Positions 3,681-12,491 of a DNA stretch of 12,781 nt are shown here, piece by piece. Source of the stretch: Candidatus Helarchaeota ASGARD archaeon Hel_GB_B (lineage in GTDB: Archaea > Asgardarchaeota > Lokiarchaeia > Helarchaeales > HEL-GB-B). Under the pieces are notes generated by a model. That model did not search any database. It had not been told where the DNA came from and saw only the letters and a program-made list of their open reading frames with translations. Both the position numbers and the translations under genes were made by a program. The stretch's first letter is position 1. Each line of letters starts with the position of its first letter. The stretch is from NCBI GenBank assembly GCA_005191425.1, contig SUPR01000095.1, forward strand, positions 1 through 12,781, read 5' to 3'.

Positions 3681-4814
3681 TTAGGGTTTAATGTCTTCTA
3701 TAAATGCGAGTCCTTCATTATACCTACTAAATAATTTATTACTTATGTCTAAAAGGAGGTCTGCCTTTTCTTGATATCCCAATACTTTACTTATTTCTGA
3801 TGCCTGTTTTATTATATCCGAAGCTTCTAATATTCTACCTTGATTTAATAAAACCCCAGCTTTTTCCAATAATTTTATTCTATTATCTTCTTGAAATTTT
3901 TCGCTTATGAATTCAGTCCTACTTGCAACAACTCGTGCAGTCTTTGCTATAATTGTAAGTATAGATTCTTGGTAATCTGGATCAATTGCTATCATCTCAT
4001 ATGTTGGGTATCCTAACATTTTTTCCACTTCCTTTGCCGGCATTGCATCGGGCAAGTCTTGTTTATTTGCAATTATTGACACAGCTGCATCTGGTGTTTC
4101 TTTTTCGATAAGATTAACAAAAAACCTTGATTCTAATATATTTTGCCTAGTAGAATCTGTAATTAATATTACAATGTCACTTCCCTTAATAAATTTAGCC
4201 CAAACAGAAGCAAATCTGACCTGCCCCGCTGTATCCCACAAATAAAACGGAATATTTGATTTAGATTTCTCACCTTTTTTTCCTAACCCCAAACGACACT
4301 CTGTAATATAGCCTGTTATAGTTGGAATATGTCTCTTCGGTAGTTCTAGTCCTTGTATTAATTTTGTAATTGTTGTTTTCCCTACTCCTGAAAATCCTAT
4401 TAATGAAACTTTTGGCCTTAAGTTCTCTAATGCTTCTTCAGCGTATTTATCAAATTCTTCAAATTGTTGTAAATTAATTTCAAATGGATCAATTCTCGTA
4501 ATCTGTTCACCATAATTTTTAACAAATCGGTCTCTTAATACTGCAATTTCTTCTGTAATACTTTCATCAGTATCTGTTCTATCAAGCAGAAGGAAAATGT
4601 AAAGGTTATATTTTTTTTCTGTAGTATATCCTAATTTATAATTCATTAAATTTAATATTTCTACATATACATCCTTTTTTAGATTTGATTCATAGTCTAT
4701 AATTGAATGAGCAAGGGACATAACTGTCTCTTCAGGTAATGAATACGCATATGTCCGTGGGAATACCAAATTATGCCCAACAAAGATCATGAGTTTTCGT
4801 AAAATTGTTTCCAC
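3681..4814 (-). CDS. Small GTPase (Arf/Rab-like, Asgard type) with N-terminal longin-like domain and C-terminal helical bundle
   Basis: G1 GFSGVGKT (aa 140-147), G2 PTI, G3 WDTAGQ (193-198), G4 NKQD followed by Arf-like LPDAM (250-258). It has a 130-aa N-terminal extension and a roughly 80-aa C-terminal extension. GTG start. Confidence 0.92.
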   Translation of the reverse strand: METILRKLMIFVGHNLVFPRTYAYSLPEETVMSLAHSIIDYESNLKKDVYVEILNLMNYKLGYTTEKKYNLYIFLLLDRTDTDESITEEIAVLRDRFVKNYGEQITRIDPFEINLQQFEEFDKYAEEALENLRPKVSLIGFSGVGKTTITKLIQGLELPKRHIPTITGYITECRLGLGKKGEKSKSNIPFYLWDTAGQVRFASVWAKFIKGSDIVILITDSTRQNILESRFFVNLIEKETPDAAVSIIANKQDLPDAMPAKEVEKMLGYPTYEMIAIDPDYQESILTIIAKTARVVASRTEFISEKFQEDNRIKLLEKAGVLLNQGRILEASDIIKQASEISKVLGYQEKADLLLDISNKLFSRYNEGLAFIEDIKP

Positions 4815-4927: not shown

Positions 4928-6061
4928 TTATTGATTTTTATCACTATTATTTTTAATACTTTTATTGTCTTTTTTAACAATTAAACCGACAATTTTGTTG
5001 ATTATCCATTCTAATCCAAGCATATAATTTAATTTTTTCCAAATTATTAACCAAATACTAATAAGTATGAATACACTGAAGGATAAAGTGAGGTATAAGT
5101 ATAAATTCATGTTAGTTAAAAAAAAACCATTTAAAAAAAAGGAGTCAAATAAAGGCGTCAGAAAAATTAAGCCAAAATGAATATAATAGACAGAAAAAGA
5201 GACATTTCCATATTCCACAACCAAATTCTTAGAAAAATCTATAATTTTGTTTTTTAATTTAAAATTCCGATAAAATGCTATAAGTAAAAAGATTAAATAT
5301 AGACCAATATTTTCCATTATATTTGATCCAAAATGGCTGAAATAGTCCGGATGACTGAAAAAATGAAAATAAGTGGCTCCAGAAATAAAAAGTATTAATG
5401 CTGGTGTCTGTATTTTTTTCAAAAAGCTAACATTAATTCCATTTTTGTCCACCTTAATTAATAATCTACCAAGTAGAAACCCCATACAATAATAAAAAAC
5501 CCATGGAAAAAAGGCAAATCCACCAAATACTGATGTATAACACAAAAACCACAAAATTGGAGTCTGAGTTAAATAATATATATAACCAATAAAGAAACTT
5601 AAAATTGTAAAACTCAATATGATTATGTTAGAATATTTAAATTGGTCTAATAAGTAAATTATAATCATTCCTAACCCTATAATTTTAAAAATATTCCAAG
5701 TCTGAAATGAAGTGGTCAGACCAACATACCCTGCAAATAAGATACTGAGTAATGTAGCAAAACCAAAAATAAGAAATGCTTTTAAAATTGTTTCTTTCGC
5801 AACAAATACTTTATTATAACTTTCTCGTTTTTTTAGAAAATAAACAAAACTATATCCTGATATTAAAAGAAAATTCGGTGCTATAATTCCACCTAAATTC
5901 GCTAACAAAAATTCTATTATTCCATGAGTAGTATTATAATAATAAAAAGAAAAGTGATAAAAAATCATTAAAATTATAAAAAATCCACGCACATAATCTA
6001 GATATGGATATCTATTTTTTTTTCTTAATATAATATTTGGTTCGTTTTTATTTACTGTCAT
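4928..6061 (-). CDS. Multi-pass membrane acyltransferase-like protein (DUF1624 / HGSNAT catalytic domain / acyltransferase-3 superfamily)
   Basis: N-terminal RYPYLDYVRGFFIILMIFYH signature, about ten hydrophobic segments, FPW motif, SFSVYYIH and C-terminal GLEW motifs. Confidence 0.8.
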   Translation of the reverse strand: MTVNKNEPNIILRKKNRYPYLDYVRGFFIILMIFYHFSFYYYNTTHGIIEFLLANLGGIIAPNFLLISGYSFVYFLKKRESYNKVFVAKETILKAFLIFGFATLLSILFAGYVGLTTSFQTWNIFKIIGLGMIIIYLLDQFKYSNIIILSFTILSFFIGYIYYLTQTPILWFLCYTSVFGGFAFFPWVFYYCMGFLLGRLLIKVDKNGINVSFLKKIQTPALILFISGATYFHFFSHPDYFSHFGSNIMENIGLYLIFLLIAFYRNFKLKNKIIDFSKNLVVEYGNVSFSVYYIHFGLIFLTPLFDSFFLNGFFLTNMNLYLYLTLSFSVFILISIWLIIWKKLNYMLGLEWIINKIVGLIVKKDNKSIKNNSDKNQ

Positions 6062-6269: not shown

Positions 6270-7982
6270 TCATACTCCTTTAAATGCAGACTTTTTTAAA
6301 GAATAGACTTGTCCCCAGCCACTTGCTATTAGAATTTTTTTTAAAAAAATGTTGTCAATCGAAAATCTATCGTCCATATTTTTAAATGCGATTCCGATGT
6401 TATTTAATATTTCAATGACTTTAAAATAGGCATCATCCCTTGAAAATATCTTAAAATCTACTGACTTATAGAATATCTTACAACGTAATATCGCAATTTG
6501 CTCAATTATATATTTTTTATACTCAATTTTTATATCTTCATTCCAATTCTTTAAAAATTTGAATTCTATTTTTTCTAAATAAATATTTTTTAAAATATTA
6601 TTCCAATAACTGTTTGCCATTTTTAAATAAAAAGCACGAAGATGAAAAATTAAATTAGTGTCCATATTTGATAAATTCAAATCAATTAAAAGGTTAATTA
6701 AAACTTCGTTAAAAAAATCAAAACCAGAATAAGAAAAATATTTAAGCAAATCGTTAATTAAATCTTCACTAATATTTATGTTTTTAAATTCTGAAGAATC
6801 TTCTAATTCAAGGTTTTTATTTATTATATTTCTAATTTCTTCTGTTAGAGATCTTCCTATGTTGTATTCAAATTCTTTAAAATTTTTATATACTCTTGGT
6901 ATTTTTTCATAATTATTATTAATGAATTTAAATTTAATTAGACTGTAAAACGAGGTAAACTCGGAATTGAATCCACCAACGGACTTTAAAATTGATTCAA
7001 AAAAATTTTGAATGCCCACATTTAATAAATAACTTTTATTTTTTAGTAATAAATCTAAAATCAAACAAATTAAATCATTGGTATCTTGTTCATTATTATG
7101 GATTATAGATATTATTTCTTTAAGATTCTCCAGACTCCTTTTAAATTCGTTGTTTTTCTTAGAATATTCTTCATCTAAAATTTTCATAAATTTTTCAAAT
7201 TGAAATGAGAATAAATAATCATCAGGTGCATTTATTCTTTTAAAATAATGATCTAATAGGACATACGAAAAATTATCTAATAATTTTGGAGTAAATTTTC
7301 TTATTTTTATTATTTCAAAAATTCCCTCAAGATCACCTGATTGGACAAATTTAGTAAATATTTTTTTTATTAGTCTAATTGGAATGAATTCACTGAATTT
7401 TATTATGATTTTCAATTCAGGAATTAGGTCATAATCTAAATAAATTTCAATTGTAGTATTAATGTTGCCTGCAAAAAACATCGCAAGACCTGCTCTTTTT
7501 ATATCATTGTTCGCTTTAAAATACAGGTACAATTTGAACAATTTTTTTTTCAATCTTTTATTATCGAAGTTCCTATCAAAATCTGTTATTATCTCTTCAT
7601 TCAAGGTATCAATTTTACAGAAAAAGATATATAAAGCTCCTATCGGATCAATTTTTGAGTATTTTTTTAAATCATTGATATTTATTGAATCATTTTGGAA
7701 TTTCTTAAAATGTAAAATCATTTTTATTTTTCGTTTTAATATAAAATAACCTATAATAATTGGAAATATTGGCATGATAATAACAAAAATCATCGGAAGA
7801 ATATCTGAAATACGCATGTAATTCAAATTTAATAAAGAAATTATAATTAATAATATGATTATTCCTATTGAAATGCTTAATATAAATTTAAAATGCTTAT
7901 AAATTGGTAAATTTTTAATTTTACCATTGTTTTTTTTGATCTCGCTTATCCTAATTTCCTCCTGAATTATGTTTAAAGACAA
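6270..7982 (-). CDS. Hypothetical membrane protein: two N-terminal TM helices and a large helical soluble domain
   Basis: 570-aa ORF. Hydrophobic segments at aa ~33-53 and ~61-82, flanked by Lys-rich stretches. The track start (TTG 7982) overlaps the upstream gene; the true start may be near 7949. Confidence 0.8.
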   Translation of the reverse strand: MSLNIIQEEIRISEIKKNNGKIKNLPIYKHFKFILSISIGIIILLIIISLLNLNYMRISDILPMIFVIIMPIFPIIIGYFILKRKIKMILHFKKFQNDSININDLKKYSKIDPIGALYIFFCKIDTLNEEIITDFDRNFDNKRLKKKLFKLYLYFKANNDIKRAGLAMFFAGNINTTIEIYLDYDLIPELKIIIKFSEFIPIRLIKKIFTKFVQSGDLEGIFEIIKIRKFTPKLLDNFSYVLLDHYFKRINAPDDYLFSFQFEKFMKILDEEYSKKNNEFKRSLENLKEIISIIHNNEQDTNDLICLILDLLLKNKSYLLNVGIQNFFESILKSVGGFNSEFTSFYSLIKFKFINNNYEKIPRVYKNFKEFEYNIGRSLTEEIRNIINKNLELEDSSEFKNINISEDLINDLLKYFSYSGFDFFNEVLINLLIDLNLSNMDTNLIFHLRAFYLKMANSYWNNILKNIYLEKIEFKFLKNWNEDIKIEYKKYIIEQIAILRCKIFYKSVDFKIFSRDDAYFKVIEILNNIGIAFKNMDDRFSIDNIFLKKILIASGWGQVYSLKKSAFKGV

Positions 7983-9165
7983 GTTTAATTAATGACTGAC
8001 GCTTGTAAACTATTAATAAAAAAATCGAAATAAAAGTTGTACCAACAATACTCACCAGAATTATTATAATACCCGGAATAGATTGGAAAATACCTAATAC
8101 TTCTAATTTATATAGATTTCCATAATATTTACCATCTTTATAAGTTGTTGAAAATTGAAATTCATAAGTTCCTTGAGGTAAATTCAATTTGATATTTTCA
8201 ATTGAACTAACATTTTGTAATATAATTGATTGAAATGGGATGTTATTTAAATAAATTGTAAAATGGACAGTAAGAGTTTCATTAAACCCTAATGGTCTGA
8301 AATTTATCACAGCAAATTGGGTTCCAAAATGTATCGGAACATAATAGACTTCTATATATGGTCCAAGAAAAAATTCCCCTGGTATTCCATCATAAAGTTG
8401 GGCATGCTGTGTATAACCAAAAAAGTCATGTGAATAGCTTGCACTTTTATTATATGTATAATTAAAAGCTTCTTCTAATGTAACTTTTTCATCGCCGTTT
8501 ACATCACCATTTAAATTATAATATGCGTCCAAGAAAAATGCAGTAAAGATACCGTGTTTTAAAAAGAATTGATCTTCAATACTACTTTCAGATCTGCCAC
8601 ATGCACTAATAATAATTCTATTAGGTTCTTCTAATGAATCAATTAGTCCACCACTATAACATGAATCGAATAGTGCAATCAATTTTGAACAGTTTATTTG
8701 GTCAAAAAAGCTTTTTAATTCATATTCATCAATATCGCCATTAATACTCCAATCATATGGGACAATTGAAGTATCTGAGCCGTTTTTATCACCATGTCCT
8801 GAAAAAAAGAAAAAGAAATAATCATTATTATTACATCTATTTGAAATCCAATTAATTTGAGCTTCAATATTATTTTTAGTTGCTTGAGAATTTATTAAAA
8901 TTTTAACATTCTCTTTTGGAAAATTTTGGTTTATTAACCATGATTTGATAGCCATAGCATCATTATCTGAGTAAAAAAGGTCATTCTGAAAACCTGGATA
9001 ATCTGAAATACCAATTATTAAAGCCCATCTGTTAATATTAGTGTTAATATTAAAATTTAATGAGTTATCTAGTTTTAATCCTGGTTCTATATTAAAATTA
9101 AAAAGCACAATGAAAAATATTATTAAAATTAAAGATGCCCTTTTATATTTACCCATTAAATGCAC
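7951..9165 (-). CDS. Caspase-family cysteine peptidase (C14, ortho/metacaspase type) with signal peptide/anchor and C-terminal TM helix
   Basis: RWALIIGISDY strand, DLFYSDNDA, FFFSGHG (His124), LFDSCYSGG (Cys169), RIIISAC and GIFT motifs, plus a D.NGD..VTLEEAF.Y tail. Hydrophobic N-terminus and C-terminal TM (~363-387) followed by KRQ. ATG at 9156 is an alternative start. Confidence 0.92.
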   Translation of the reverse strand: MHLMGKYKRASLILIIFFIVLFNFNIEPGLKLDNSLNFNINTNINRWALIIGISDYPGFQNDLFYSDNDAMAIKSWLINQNFPKENVKILINSQATKNNIEAQINWISNRCNNNDYFFFFFSGHGDKNGSDTSIVPYDWSINGDIDEYELKSFFDQINCSKLIALFDSCYSGGLIDSLEEPNRIIISACGRSESSIEDQFFLKHGIFTAFFLDAYYNLNGDVNGDEKVTLEEAFNYTYNKSASYSHDFFGYTQHAQLYDGIPGEFFLGPYIEVYYVPIHFGTQFAVINFRPLGFNETLTVHFTIYLNNIPFQSIILQNVSSIENIKLNLPQGTYEFQFSTTYKDGKYYGNLYKLEVLGIFQSIPGIIIILVSIVGTTFISIFLLIVYKRQSLIKLVFKHNSGGN

Positions 9166-9169
9166 ACGA

Positions 9170-9937
9170 TCATCTATTTTTTCTTATAATTTTTAATAAC
9201 TCGTCTAATTTAAATGTATAATCTGAAACTATTTTAAAATCTTTGATTTCATAAGCCAAATCTATAATTGATTTATATAATTCAATAACTGTATCAATAT
9301 TTTTAACTTGAAGTTCGGTGCTGGCTTTTCTAATTAAGCGTTGAATTAAAGCTTTATTCTCTTCTATATACTGGATACTGGCTTCTTCTATAGATTGAAG
9401 GTCTGCAGAGTATGCATTGGTAAGGACAGTTTCAATCTCGAAAACTAATTCATATATTTTTTTAGGGTTATTTACGTCCCAATTTGTGTATGATGGAACT
9501 TTTTGGAGAAAATCTTCCATAGAACTAAATTTTTCAGTAATATTGCTAGAAGTTGTAATAATTGGGCGATCAGGATAATTAGTATAATCAATTGTAAATA
9601 TAAAATGCGTATCTAAAGTAATTGAGAGATAAACTTTAGCTTTAGTAATTGTTTCTTCAAAGTCAGTTTGAAAATAATACATTAAATCTCGAGCCTGCTC
9701 TGCGAGTCCCGTATCTTTTTTTGTTGCTGCCGAAATGCCTACTTTCTCTTTGTATTGGGCGATTTTAGCTAAAATTTCTCTTAATTCATCTTGCAACTTT
9801 TCTTTCCTTTGTTTAAACTCCGGCAAACTAATTGTAGCTTGTTCTAGCTGCTTTTTAAGTGAGTTTACTTCTCCCACTAACTGTGTAACTCTTATTTTTA
9901 ATTGTTTTACTTTATTTGCTATATCTTCGTTGCTCAT
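9170..9937 (-). CDS. Coiled-coil + probable E2/UEV/RWD-like domain + C-terminal helical hairpin protein, with no cysteine
   Basis: Heptad pattern at aa 1-65. aa ~78-175 reads helix, strands, FIFTIDYTNYPDRPII (YPxxP of the UBC-like fold), then W...P..I.EL..EI..L. GGTGG Shine-Dalgarno-like motif upstream of the ATG. The ORF is secure; the fold call is inference. Confidence 0.65.
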   Translation of the reverse strand: MSNEDIANKVKQLKIRVTQLVGEVNSLKKQLEQATISLPEFKQRKEKLQDELREILAKIAQYKEKVGISAATKKDTGLAEQARDLMYYFQTDFEETITKAKVYLSITLDTHFIFTIDYTNYPDRPIITTSSNITEKFSSMEDFLQKVPSYTNWDVNNPKKIYELVFEIETVLTNAYSADLQSIEEASIQYIEENKALIQRLIRKASTELQVKNIDTVIELYKSIIDLAYEIKDFKIVSDYTFKLDELLKIIRKNR

Positions 9938-9984
9938 TAAACCACCAAATAATTAAAAAGTCATCATTTTTGTTCTATTTAACA

Positions 9985-10002
9985 CTTATTATTAACTTTT
10001 GG
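9985..10002 (-). promoter_or_regulatory. Candidate BRE/TATA promoter for the three-gene cluster
   Basis: Minus-strand CCAAAAG-TTAATAATAAG about 50-60 nt upstream of the ATG at 9937. Weak in this base composition. Confidence 0.25.
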
Positions 10003-10184
10003 TTTTTTTAATTATAAATAAATTTATTATTGAAGGTCGCTTTTGCAGATTTTGTTTAAATTCGGTTTATTTAGAAATATAAATAGATCGATGTATTATT
10101 AGAATTTTTAAGGATTAAAGATGATATGTATTAATGTATAAAAAGAATTACTAATAAAGATTAGTATAATGCAGGTAATGAGAT

Positions 10185-10490
10185 ATGTTGGTAAAAGAAG
10201 AAATTTTAAGAAGAATAAGAGAAAATAAGGAAAAGATAAAATCATTTTGGGTTAAAAAAATTGGTATTTTTGGATCCGTGGCAAGAAATGAGATAACTGA
10301 AAAAAGTGATATTGATGTAGTTGTAGAATTTGAGAAAGGTAAAGCCACATTTAAGAATGTTTGTGGACTTATCGATTTTCTTGAAAATCTTTTTGGCAGA
10401 GAGGTTGATATTTTAACACCTGATGGGATTGAAGCGATAAGATTGGAACATGTGAAAAAAGAAATAAAAAAATGTGTTGAGTATGCATAA
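10185..10490 (+). CDS. mntA: Minimal nucleotidyltransferase (MNT) antitoxin of the MntA-HepT type
   Basis: 101 aa. IGIFGSVARNEITEKSDIDVVVEF carries an exact GS-x10-DxD motif, followed by FLENLFGREVDILT. Confidence 0.92.
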   Translation: MLVKEEILRRIRENKEKIKSFWVKKIGIFGSVARNEITEKSDIDVVVEFEKGKATFKNVCGLIDFLENLFGREVDILTPDGIEAIRLEHVKKEIKKCVEYA

Positions 10491-10542
10491 ACGAGATAAT
10501 AAGGAATATATAATATATGTAAAAATATTTTTACATAATTGA
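10483..10542 (+). pseudogene. Truncated HEPN (DUF86/HepT-like) toxin remnant
   Basis: ATG overlaps the MNT stop (ATGCATAA). It reads MHKRDNKEYI, resembling the usual M-x-KRD-x-x-Y-L start of DUF86 toxins, then drifts and stops after 19 codons. No RxxxxH motif in any downstream frame. Confidence 0.6.
10516..10537. repeat. Perfect 22-bp palindrome
   Basis: TATGTAAAAAT|ATTTTTACATA, 11 contiguous complementary pairs with no spacer. Confidence 0.9.
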
Positions 10543-10600
10543 TGTATTATATTGATATATGTTTAAAAAGAATGAAATATTTAAAAAAATATAATAATAA

Positions 10601-10924
10601 ATGGTGGATAATTAACTGAAATGTAAATATATTATTCCGGATACAATCCATAAATTAATATTGAAAGAAAGAGGCGAAAACGGAAATATATGTATGCTGA
10701 ACGATCCTGAAAAAATTGATTTCGTAAGATTAAAGGTTTCCTATAATGGAAAATTCGGGATATGATCATTCTATTTGAAAATTAATTTTGATGGGATCCT
10801 GGAAATTCAATTTAAAGATATAGCGTATGGCAAAGTATTAATTAATGCTCTCGCAAATACTTTGATTAACGGCGATGAACCTGATGGGAATTTAAATAAA
10901 GAATTGGATGACCAATTCTCAATA
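10601..10924 (+). pseudogene. Degraded gene of unknown family with two in-frame stops
   Basis: One frame reads MVDN*LKCKYIIPDTIHKLILKERGENGNICMLNDPEKIDFVRLKVSYNGKFGI*SFYLKINFDGILEIQFKDIAYGKVLINALANTLINGDEPDGNLNKELDDQFS, with TAA at 10613-10615 and TGA at 10763-10765. The track ORF 10775..10984 is its distal part. Confidence 0.5.
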
Positions 10925-11356
10925 CCATATCGTATTCCAAATTTTAGTTCCATTTGGATAAAATTTTACGATAAGAAAATCTGAAAGTCCAGCCTCATAA
11001 TTTGTAGTTGATCTACAAACATAAATAAAGCCATCTATATCTATTGTTATGTCATTTCCCGTCTCATAATTTCCATTTCCATAAGAAATAGTCCTCCCAG
11101 TAGCATAAATATATTGATTATCACTTAAAGCTAATTTAATAATGTAATTACTGTAAATCCCACCCCAACTAATATTCCATAGAAAATAATTAGTATTCTT
11201 TTCTAAAATCTGAATATCTATAGAATTCTCTGCTCTCTTCTAGATTATATTGGGATATATTAAACGCGCTAAAAAGCCGAATACCATAAAAATTATTAAA
11301 AATATCGTTATCACTCTTTTATCTTTTTCTATGGTCATCTCTATCATTATTTCCAT
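10919..11356 (-). pseudogene. Pseudogene of a secreted beta-propeller repeat (SBBP-like) protein
   Basis: Manual translation from ATG 11356 (or 11338) gives a signal-like KRVITIFLIIFMVFGFL, a TAG at 11242-11240, then in the same frame WNISWGG...LSDNQYIYATGRTISYGNG-NYETGNDITIDIDGFIYVCRSTTNYEAGLSDFLIVKFYPNGTKIWNTIW, ending at TGA 10921-10919. Confidence 0.8.
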
Positions 11357-11450
11357 CAACCTACTTTTATTATTAACTCAAATTAACATTCATATTATAA
11401 TATTAAAAATAATTTTTATAGAAAATTTATTTTTTAATACCATCTTTTTC

Positions 11451-12491
11451 CTATTCAGTTTCAATTTTCTTTTTTGCCATTAATTCAAATCCCACCGCAT
11501 TAGAAAAAATATGGTCTTCAACGACAATTATTCTATCAAGGTCTTCTATCAAATTGTTAGTTAATATTAGCATTTCTATTTCATTCCAAAAAATCGGGAC
11601 TGCCTCCCCCGTAATAATATAATATTCTATTTCTGCATCTGGTGGTAAGAAATTCAAAATTTTTCTTATACTATCCACAATTTCTTGCGAAATTTGTCTG
11701 ATAAAATGTTCTTTCACATCACTAATATTATATCTTTTTCCTGCAATTACTATGTCGTCATTTTTCTCCTTCAAGTTTTTGATGATGGAAAGTGGTTTGA
11801 TTATTTGGTTTGTGTGTTGTTGTAATGATTGACAAATTTTATTAGCTAAAACAAACAATGAAGCATCTGTTAAATTTGCTGATGCATTTTTTATAATTCT
11901 CCCCTCAAAAATTGTCATTATTTCGGTTAAGAGATCTAACGAAATTACAAGTGCATTTATTGCTTTTAAATTATGATATTTATGGACGTGATAATAATAA
12001 GTCCCAAATGCTTCTGGCATCACCATTACTTTTTTAATAACCTTATGTATTGTTAAAATCTCTTTAGTAGTTTCATTTTTTATTTTTATGGAAATTTCAC
12101 CTTTTAATTTTCCACTTAATTCTTTCATTTTATCTATACTTGTTGATAGAGGGACACCAATCCCTAAGACTATCTCTTCTCCGTCCATTTTTGATATAAG
12201 CGGAATACCTGCTTTTATTAATTTAAATACATCATCAATTTTATCTAATCTTCCTTGGTCCATAATAAAATGTTTTATATCACTCTGTAATCTTGCTAAT
12301 TCTCCAATATAATATTCTTTTTTCTCATCTATTAATACTAAATTATTTATCCAACTTTTATCAGTAGCAAATCCTTCCCACCCTTCAAGCGGGGCACCAA
12401 TAATACTTGGAAATGCTACCTTTTGGTCATCACATGTAAACTTAAGGTATCCGCCTATATCTATTCCAATTGTAAGAGTTATTTTTACCAC
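11451..12491 (-). CDS. Actin-fold ATPase-like protein (ParM/StbA / Ta0583-like), divergent
   Basis: IGIDIG..K phosphate-1, AFPSIIG, YYIGELA, LGIGVP, VMPEAFGTY connect-1, IITG adenosine region and NAVGF connect-2, in the ParM-family order. Confidence 0.85.
   Translation of the reverse strand: MVKITLTIGIDIGGYLKFTCDDQKVAFPSIIGAPLEGWEGFATDKSWINNLVLIDEKKEYYIGELARLQSDIKHFIMDQGRLDKIDDVFKLIKAGIPLISKMDGEEIVLGIGVPLSTSIDKMKELSGKLKGEISIKIKNETTKEILTIHKVIKKVMVMPEAFGTYYYHVHKYHNLKAINALVISLDLLTEIMTIFEGRIIKNASANLTDASLFVLANKICQSLQQHTNQIIKPLSIIKNLKEKNDDIVIAGKRYNISDVKEHFIRQISQEIVDSIRKILNFLPPDAEIEYYIITGEAVPIFWNEIEMLILTNNLIEDLDRIIVVEDHIFSNAVGFELMAKKKIETE

Follow-up and report, generated by a model that had tools for sequence, protein, structure and literature searches.

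A putative composite locus in an Asgard archaeon: an actin-like gene and its UBC-fold partner followed by a caspase-like membrane protein pair

ParM/ParR-type segregation cassettes and the crenactin-arcadin cluster are gene systems built on an actin-fold protein, and ParR of the former is a ribbon-helix-helix DNA binder. Here we analyze a 12,781-nt stretch of DNA from Candidatus Helarchaeota archaeon Hel_GB_B (positions 1 to 12,781 of contig SUPR01000095.1, assembly GCA_005191425.1; hereafter, the window), which carries a gene for a ParM-like actin-fold protein, ALP1, and, downstream of it, three co-directional genes denoted A, B, and C that encode, respectively, a UBC-fold protein devoid of cysteines, a caspase-like protease predicted to face the cell exterior, and an orphan protein with two transmembrane (TM) helices. 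We propose that this locus is a composite in which a young, lineage-specific membrane pair, B-C, was appended to an older filament/adaptor unit, ALP1-A; on the evidence below, the chances of this proposal being correct or incorrect appear evenly balanced. At its core is the observation that outside one shallow clade the neighbor of A is a ParM-like ALP_N actin gene, and never B or C.

The likeness to the ParM/ParR and crenactin-arcadin systems (the latter mentioned in PMC10936438) resides in the gene organization seen in relatives of the window: the gene for an ALP_N actin-fold ATPase, ALP1, is directly followed by that of a small nonenzymatic partner, A, and most of the ALP1-A loci also contain a second, divergently oriented ALP gene (ALP2) with its own partner of ~400 aa. 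Unlike ParR, however, A combines a coiled coil with a cysteine-less UBC fold. Further departures from the ParM/ParR cassettes are the conserved deviant phosphate-2 motif of ALP1, SLDLLTE, and the location of the examined ALP1-A loci among chromosomal-looking genes; no centromere-like or iteron-like repeats were seen in the scanned segment 9900–11500 of the window. A UBC fold that lacks the catalytic cysteine and is flanked by helical hairpins also makes the 255-aa protein A similar to UEV-Vps23 (TSG101/Vps23) and VPS37A of the ESCRT-I complex. Yet, A is arranged as coiled coil, UBC fold, and terminal helices, whereas the published Helarchaeial UEV-Vps23 (258 aa) starts with the UEV domain, followed by the stalk and the steadiness box (bioRxiv 10.1101/2023.07.25.550441). 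Moreover, A lies outside the ESCRT/ubiquitin cluster, its neighbors being the genes for ALP_N, the caspase, the orphan protein, and a GTPase.

The closest counterparts of B are prokaryotic orthocaspases and secreted or surface C14 proteins, with which it shares a p20-type domain, a His-Cys dyad, and the DSCxSG motif; surface-type domains such as PKD are also found in many C14 homologs of archaea and bacteria. B differs from other orthocaspases in its compact type-I layout (signal, C14 domain, a single C-terminal domain, TM helix, and basic tail), shared by ~7 sequences, and in being always followed by the orphan gene C. As in bacterial gasdermin-caspase operons, a C14 protease gene is found here beside uncharacterized partner genes, but no gasdermin-like protein is encoded. 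The first-pass annotation of the window, derived from the sequence alone, had cited this type of pairing, in which a protease is encoded beside its substrate; this does not fit because the active site of B is predicted to be outside the cell, whereas A and the 470-aa solenoid domain of C are predicted to be cytoplasmic.

Full-text literature searches returned no description of the ALP1-A pairing or of the A-B-C array, and nothing specific on an Asgard pair of ALP and RWD/UEV-like proteins or on an Asgard surface caspase module; PADLOC and NCBIfam yielded no description either. The initial impression that the combination is unlike any described system stood up in these searches, the component types themselves (orthocaspase, UBC fold, solenoid, and ParM-like actin) being already known.

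ALP1, the constant neighbor of gene A

The window, with a GC content of ~25%, constitutes contig C179 of G000, an Asgard genome of 3.5 Mb with 93.7% completeness; the database proteins nearest to those encoded in the window are labeled Helarchaeota, Lokiarchaeota, or Promethearchaeota. Below, G001 denotes a genome of the same genus, and the remaining G and L codes denote genomes and loci of relatives, L016 being a contig of GCA_019058355 and L023 being contig C160 of G000 itself. Gene A (9170..9937, minus strand), delineated by its open reading frame (ORF), 13 orthologs, an AlphaFold2 model, and fold searches, is narrowly distributed: among 400 Asgard genomes searched with the A profile, 12 have an ortholog, and each of these falls in the class of the window. 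In ~14 of the 15 loci with available upstream sequence, ALP1 is located upstream of A, at a distance of 3–144 nt or overlapping it (L013, L014, L015, L016, L018, L031, G004, G005, G006, G029, G187, G189, G190, and G243, with a variant arrangement in G188). All 10 A-containing genomes tested for ALP1, not counting G000 itself, gave an ALP match, which in G001 is solely an ALP2-like paralogue that does not adjoin A; G003 was searched and gave no match. At least ten of the more distant genomes encode A and ALP1 in the absence of an ortholog of B, C, or the GTPase.

In the window, ALP1 (11451..12491, minus strand; Pfam PF17989, E = 1.7e-11) is split from A by an opposite-strand gene for an MNT-type nucleotidyltransferase (10185..10490, plus strand; Pfam PF01909, E = 3.6e-16; PADLOC PDC-S09) and ~1 kb of noncoding DNA. 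This separation is specific to G000: none of the relatives examined has the MNT gene or the noncoding stretch at this position. The separation probably explains why the ALP1-A link was missed in the first-pass annotation.

The sequence motifs of ALP1 are unusual but conserved. Eight orthologs retain both SLDLLTE and, as the adenosine motif, I(T/S/A)GE, with the S, L, D, T, and E residues and the GE pair being invariant; judged by this alignment, the deviant motifs appear to represent a stable variant and not decay. Structural prediction of the ALP1-A complex gave a score of 0.37 compared with 0.01 for the best control, with contact agreement between runs of at least 0% and a predicted local distance difference test score (pLDDT) of the partner of at least 76, which amounts to a verdict of weak support. 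For calibration, 58 of 80 solved complexes and 2 of 110 mismatched pairs attained the mark used, and the passes at 0.60 or under comprise only 7 of the 80 solved complexes along with both mismatches.

Several additional features of the region were recorded. The helical ~400-aa partner of ALP2 is encoded in G000 at C160:33614-34855 (L023:3615-4856, minus strand) and has orthologs at L014:2232-3467, L018:172-1431, L024:12986-14170, and L027:3609-4808. Its C-terminal peptide, RPKLDDM(L/I)DS(I/V)(I/V)V(C/S)E, is almost invariant and, going by its sequence, could be a ParR-like actin-binding tail; the final helix of A orthologs contains a similar motif, KLD(D/E)xL. Homology between A and the ALP2 partner was considered and rejected, HHalign assigning it a probability of 4%. 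The MNT gene is solitary, with no intact HEPN partner in the stretch 9938–11450. A 30-nt piece of its 3′ part recurs at 10879–10908 with 70% identity and is possibly a remnant of a second MNT copy; the other repeats between ALP1 and A are short, chance-level pairs. The segment 10001–10500 displays a GC skew of +0.58.

A UBC fold without cysteine

The AlphaFold2 model of A, built on 13 orthologs, consists of a helical hairpin or coiled coil (residues 3–65), a UBC-fold, UEV/RWD-like domain (residues 70–177; 9407..9730, minus strand), and three C-terminal helices (residues 180–254). The central domain, delimited by the ortholog alignment, models, and fold searches, adopts an alpha/four-strand-beta/alpha arrangement (pLDDT 78) and carries a conserved YP(D/E)RP flap and an NW motif. 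The entire protein, which is predicted to be soluble and cytoplasmic, contains not a single cysteine, so the UBC fold is devoid of the catalytic residue. The top Foldseek matches of the model are E2 and UEV structures. In VIA-align comparisons, the best match of residues 70–177 was to VPS37A, a subunit of ESCRT-I, in its UEV-like domain (Z 10.4, root-mean-square deviation 2.8, 102 residues), followed by E2s (Z 9.8–9.0) and RWD domains (Z 9.2–8.9, with GCN2 RWD at 9.2); as measured on the model, these scores are effectively tied.

At the sequence level, neither A nor its 12 orthologs matched Pfam UEV (PF05743) or Vps23_core (PF09454) at E-values up to 1, no match to RWD or UQ_con was obtained for them, A had no match to any Pfam family, DNA-binding families included, and a search of the PDB sequences with the A profile produced coiled-coil noise only. 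Thus, the label UEV-like, attached to A in the first-pass annotation, is correct at the level of the fold, where the model shows a cysteine-free UBC domain, and does not extend to sequence. The A domain does match by sequence proteins of the same genome that themselves match Pfam RWD/UQ_con and adjoin genes for a ThiF E1 and RING proteins. A genuine UEV-Vps23 of G000 is found elsewhere, as a 268-aa ORF on contig C128 that sits beside two Snf7 genes and scores above the Pfam thresholds of both UEV and Vps23_core. In scans of the whole genome, both domains were detected on C128, Vps23_core also on C122 above the cut-off and weakly on C160, and neither in the window.

The UBC-like domains nearest to that of A within its own genome belong to two ubiquitin-system gene pairs, at C178:7607-10256 and C152:12852-15160: in one, a ThiF E1 is accompanied by an RWD/E2-like plus Prok-RING protein, and in the other, an RWD protein adjoins a RING/zinc-ribbon protein. 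In the distant relative L016, the gene directly downstream of A (L016:1726-3018) encodes a 430-aa A paralog with 32% identity over 133 aa, indicating that the putative adaptor was duplicated in tandem in that lineage. A C-terminal helical module common to A and the GTPase was also considered and rejected, BLASTP giving nothing significant (best E 0.76).

The B-C pair and its place behind A

A, B, and C are three minus-strand ORFs that run in the same direction from 9937 to 6270, in agreement with the coordinates of the first-pass annotation. B (7951..9165, minus strand; 404 aa) matches Pfam PF00656 (Peptidase_C14) with a score of 67.5 bits, the cut-off being 21.4 (E = 1.9e-18). The catalytic residues, His124 of the SGHG motif (codon 8794..8796, minus strand) and Cys169 of DSCxSGG (codon 8659..8661, minus strand), are invariant in the alignment of seven orthologs. 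The assignment further relies on the full-length orthologs (~7, at 46–56% identity) and on hydropathy and charge, which reveal a basic N-terminus with a hydrophobic, signal-like segment, the C14 domain, a C-terminal domain that reads as beta-rich from sequence, a TM helix, and a conserved basic tail. YKRQ follows the C-terminal TM helix, and the tail conforms to the motif YK+xNxxK, with Y387, K388, and K394 being invariant. These signals predict a type-I membrane topology with the catalytic domain outside the cell; B contains six N-X-S/T sequons. The Asp residue just before the catalytic Cys suggests a preference for Arg or Lys at P1.

C (6270..7982, minus strand; 570 aa), defined by alignment and an AlphaFold2 model, represents an orphan family. 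Its layout includes a basic N-terminus, a TM hairpin at ~27–84 with basic segments on both sides, and an all-helical domain of ~470 aa; the short outer loop (~9 residues) contains a conserved NLNY..D and no conserved basic residue. The helical domain is modeled as an alpha-solenoid (pLDDT 80.6; predicted template-modeling score 0.71) and predicted to be cytoplasmic. The first in-frame ATG corresponds to Met56, beyond the conserved first TM helix, and we accordingly place the start at TTG 7982, the sole common start codon (ATG, GTG, or TTG) that retains this helix. A profile hidden Markov model search of 1.84 billion representative clusters identified eight clusters of the family, all close; Foldseek searches of the PDB and AFDB returned generic ARM/TPR/PPR-like folds only (TM-score < 0.25), C matched nothing in Pfam, NCBIfam, or PADLOC, and an Atlas feature search gave no usable match. 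The composition of C is skewed, with GC contents at first and second codon positions (GC1 and GC2) of 0.27 and 0.19 and with N, I, K, F, or Y accounting for 52% of the residues. Given that its GC content at third positions resembles that of the neighbors, rapid drift in an AT-rich genome fits better than foreign origin.

The junctions between the three genes are tight. The stop codon of A (9170–9172) precedes the B start by 4 nt, if GTG 9165 is used, or by 13 nt, if translation begins at ATG 9156, and the 3′ end of B, with its stop codon at 7951–7953, overlaps C from the TTG start by 32 nt (7951..7982, minus strand). The array is flanked by larger gaps, of 247 nt on its upstream side, before A, and 208 nt on its downstream side, after C. 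Downstream of C follow genes for an Acyltransferase_3/HGSNAT-like membrane protein (4928..6061, minus strand) and a small GTPase with a Roc/Arf/Ras-like G domain and N- and C-terminal extensions (3681..4814, minus strand), both assigned with Pfam. The principal structural claims of the first-pass annotation, namely, three co-oriented and nearly unspaced genes set off by larger gaps, a surface-anchored caspase with C169 as the catalytic residue, and a helical protein with two TM segments, were all borne out, with the topology of B being a prediction. From the spacing, A-B-C is probably transcribed as one unit in G000. The sequencing runs listed with 6270–9937 are exclusively DNA metagenomes, from hydrothermal vents and marine sediment; a promoter and terminator scan of the window, with bacterial models that are not applicable to an archaeon, gave counts at the level of shuffled sequences, and the Rfam and tRNA scans gave no matches.

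The order A-B-C followed by the GTPase recurs, whole or in part, in six other contigs (G001, L013, L014, L018, L031, and L030). L013 and L014 contain the complete order ALP1-A-B-C-GTPase, L018 stops after B, L031 stops within C, L030 begins at B, and G001 retains A, C, and a B gene split across a contig end. Wherever found, A-B-C coincides with A identities of 64–70% (at least 64%), that is, it is confined to one shallow Helarchaeota-like clade, and orthologs of B and C are found in this clade only, always together where the contig allows. Hence, the expectation that the three genes would remain adjacent across Asgard homologs held for close relatives and failed for more distant ones, in which A occurs without B or C beside it. 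Even within the clade, synteny adds little because unrelated flanking genes (those for an Fe-S protein, a 199-aa protein, an RmlD-like protein, and the GTPase) are collinear with the window in G001, L013, and L014 across the whole 12-kb neighborhood, so that at this depth gene order alone cannot tell an operon from an inherited neighborhood. Junction spacing is more telling. The B-C junctions measure −32 nt in the window and +16, +70, and −4 nt in relatives, with an overlap also in G001; L031 combines an A-B gap of 6 nt with the B-C junction of −4 nt, and the A-B junctions of L013 and L018 are tight as well. Because the B and C frames overlap or nearly touch, the two proteins are probably made together through translational coupling.

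The genes of the neighborhood diverge at different rates, identity to relatives being 84% for the Fe-S protein, 73–81% for the GTPase, 60–70% for ALP1, 64–70% for A, 47–56% for B, and 29–37% for C. The GTPase ortholog directly follows C in L013, L014, and G001, and at this level of identity its position behind C is restricted to the shallow clade; the acyltransferase gene that intervenes in G000 has no counterpart in these three loci. The GTPase family is large: G000 has many paralogs (contigs C4, C142, C92, C131, and C109), and searches of five related genomes gave several matches in each, at 30–43% identity.

A proposed composite locus and its possible significance

The phyletic pattern suggests two units of different age. 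The older one, ALP1-A, we infer from an adjacency that persists at the order to class level, from co-occurrence of the two genes, and from the weak support of the complex model; in this unit, A, encoded directly downstream of the ParM-like ALP1, would bind the filament as its adaptor or regulator. The younger unit, present in one Helarchaeota-like clade, would comprise B as an outward-facing orthocaspase-like protease and C as a scaffold. Overlapping genes, strict co-occurrence, and the conserved tail of B point to an association in which the TM helix and basic tail of B contact the TM hairpin and solenoid of C, which would thereby hold the tail-anchored protease; the substrates of B would be surface or extracellular proteins, and neither A nor the cytoplasmic domain of C. 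Under this scenario, the B-C unit and the small GTPase were appended behind A in the ancestor of the clade, giving rise to ALP1-A-B-C-GTPase, and in G000 two insertions, the MNT gene upstream of A and the acyltransferase gene downstream of C, would have loosened the ends of the array around the remaining tight core of A-B-C. Some observations weigh against such a division. The A-B gap is very short in four of six genomes (4–13, 10, 11, and 6 nt), which speaks for A sharing a transcript with B-C and perhaps also acting together with them. Furthermore, A-B-C is contiguous in G000 and G001, even though ALP1 is separated from A in the former and was not found upstream in the latter. Finally, the ALP1-A complex score gives weak support, and Pfam scans identified no recognized filament-binding or DNA-binding domain in A.

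Taken at face value, the same spacing could signify a single cytoskeleton-to-surface module, in which the C solenoid tethers A to the membrane, and with it the ALP1 filament, and keeps hold of B by way of TM and tail contacts, such that a GTPase-switched filament positions or regulates the surface protease. The co-directional array with its short gap and overlap, equally tight in L031 and L018, agrees with functional coupling of this kind, as do the full five-gene order in L013 and L014, the invariant residues of the B tail, which suggest a cytoplasmic contact, and the alpha-solenoid of C, a type of fold that serves as a docking scaffold. Nevertheless, we regard such integration as unlikely given the more distant genomes in which A and ALP1 do without the other three genes, the wider A-B gaps of L014 (142 nt) and G001 (179 nt), and the unrelated acyltransferase gene interposed between C and the GTPase in G000. 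The first-pass annotation had envisaged a different joint module, for transmembrane proteolytic signaling or cargo sorting, with A as a ubiquitin-binding adaptor of the UEV type. What survives of this idea is a tight, real array kept in close relatives; no link to ubiquitin was found, a protease-substrate pairing of the gasdermin type does not fit the predicted topology, and the synteny is shallow. The UBC fold without cysteine, the VPS37A match, the tight A-B-C spacing, and the presence in G000 of a ubiquitin system (ThiF E1, RWD/E2-like, and RING genes) would all be compatible with an adaptor of this kind, but the VPS37A match is statistically tied with E2 and RWD, Pfam recognizes no UEV or Vps23_core in any A ortholog, the domain order is not that of the Helarchaeial UEV-Vps23, and the Pfam-positive UEV-Vps23 of this genome resides with Snf7 genes on C128. 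In addition, none of the loci examined has a ubiquitin or ESCRT gene next to A, whose constant neighbor is actin-like. On these grounds, we consider the module with A as a ubiquitin adaptor improbable.

Equally doubtful, in our judgment, is the notion that B-C, either alone or combined with the GTPase, functions in conflict or defense as a fast-evolving module that pairs a repeat-protein sensor with a caspase effector and lies behind A by chance. C and B do diverge much faster than their neighbors (29–37% and 47–56% vs 60–84% identity), homologs include caspase domains fused to or encoded beside TPR-type repeats (e.g., P0053), and a candidate-defense gene, MNT, is nearby. However, the protease domain of B is predicted to be extracellular, unlike in the known intracellular caspases of abortive infection, and a Pfam scan of the window disclosed no gasdermin-like or other toxin partner. 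The PADLOC results point in both directions: B matches the generic "caspase" model (E = 1.1e-16) but falls far below the cut-off for the EACC1-associated caspase (38 vs 140 bits), C, the GTPase, and ALP1 have no match, and A has an insignificant coiled-coil match.

Extending the composite reading, ALP1-A and the divergent ALP2 with its 400-aa partner might constitute an undescribed Asgard cytomotive filament system, equipped with a cargo adaptor in which a coiled coil is joined to an RWD/UEV-like domain, and wired to the membrane in the Helarchaeota-like clade via C and B under control of the small GTPase. This is a long shot. Eukaryotic kinetochore proteins link cargo to polymers by means of this architecture, a coiled coil combined with an RWD/UEV-like domain.

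Studies of Asgard archaea seek the roots of the eukaryotic cytoskeleton, trafficking, and ubiquitin systems. In this context, B-C would exemplify, in compact form, the attachment of a caspase-like surface protease to a scaffold in the cytoplasm; the very narrow distribution of the pair limits its general importance. The locus also shows that a UBC-fold protein without the catalytic cysteine need not signal ESCRT or ubiquitin function: in this case, the protein constantly accompanies a ParM-like actin. Should A turn out to be a filament adaptor, prokaryotic cytoskeletons would have put the UBC/RWD fold to a new use, with a testable parallel to the eukaryotic coiled-coil-RWD adaptors.

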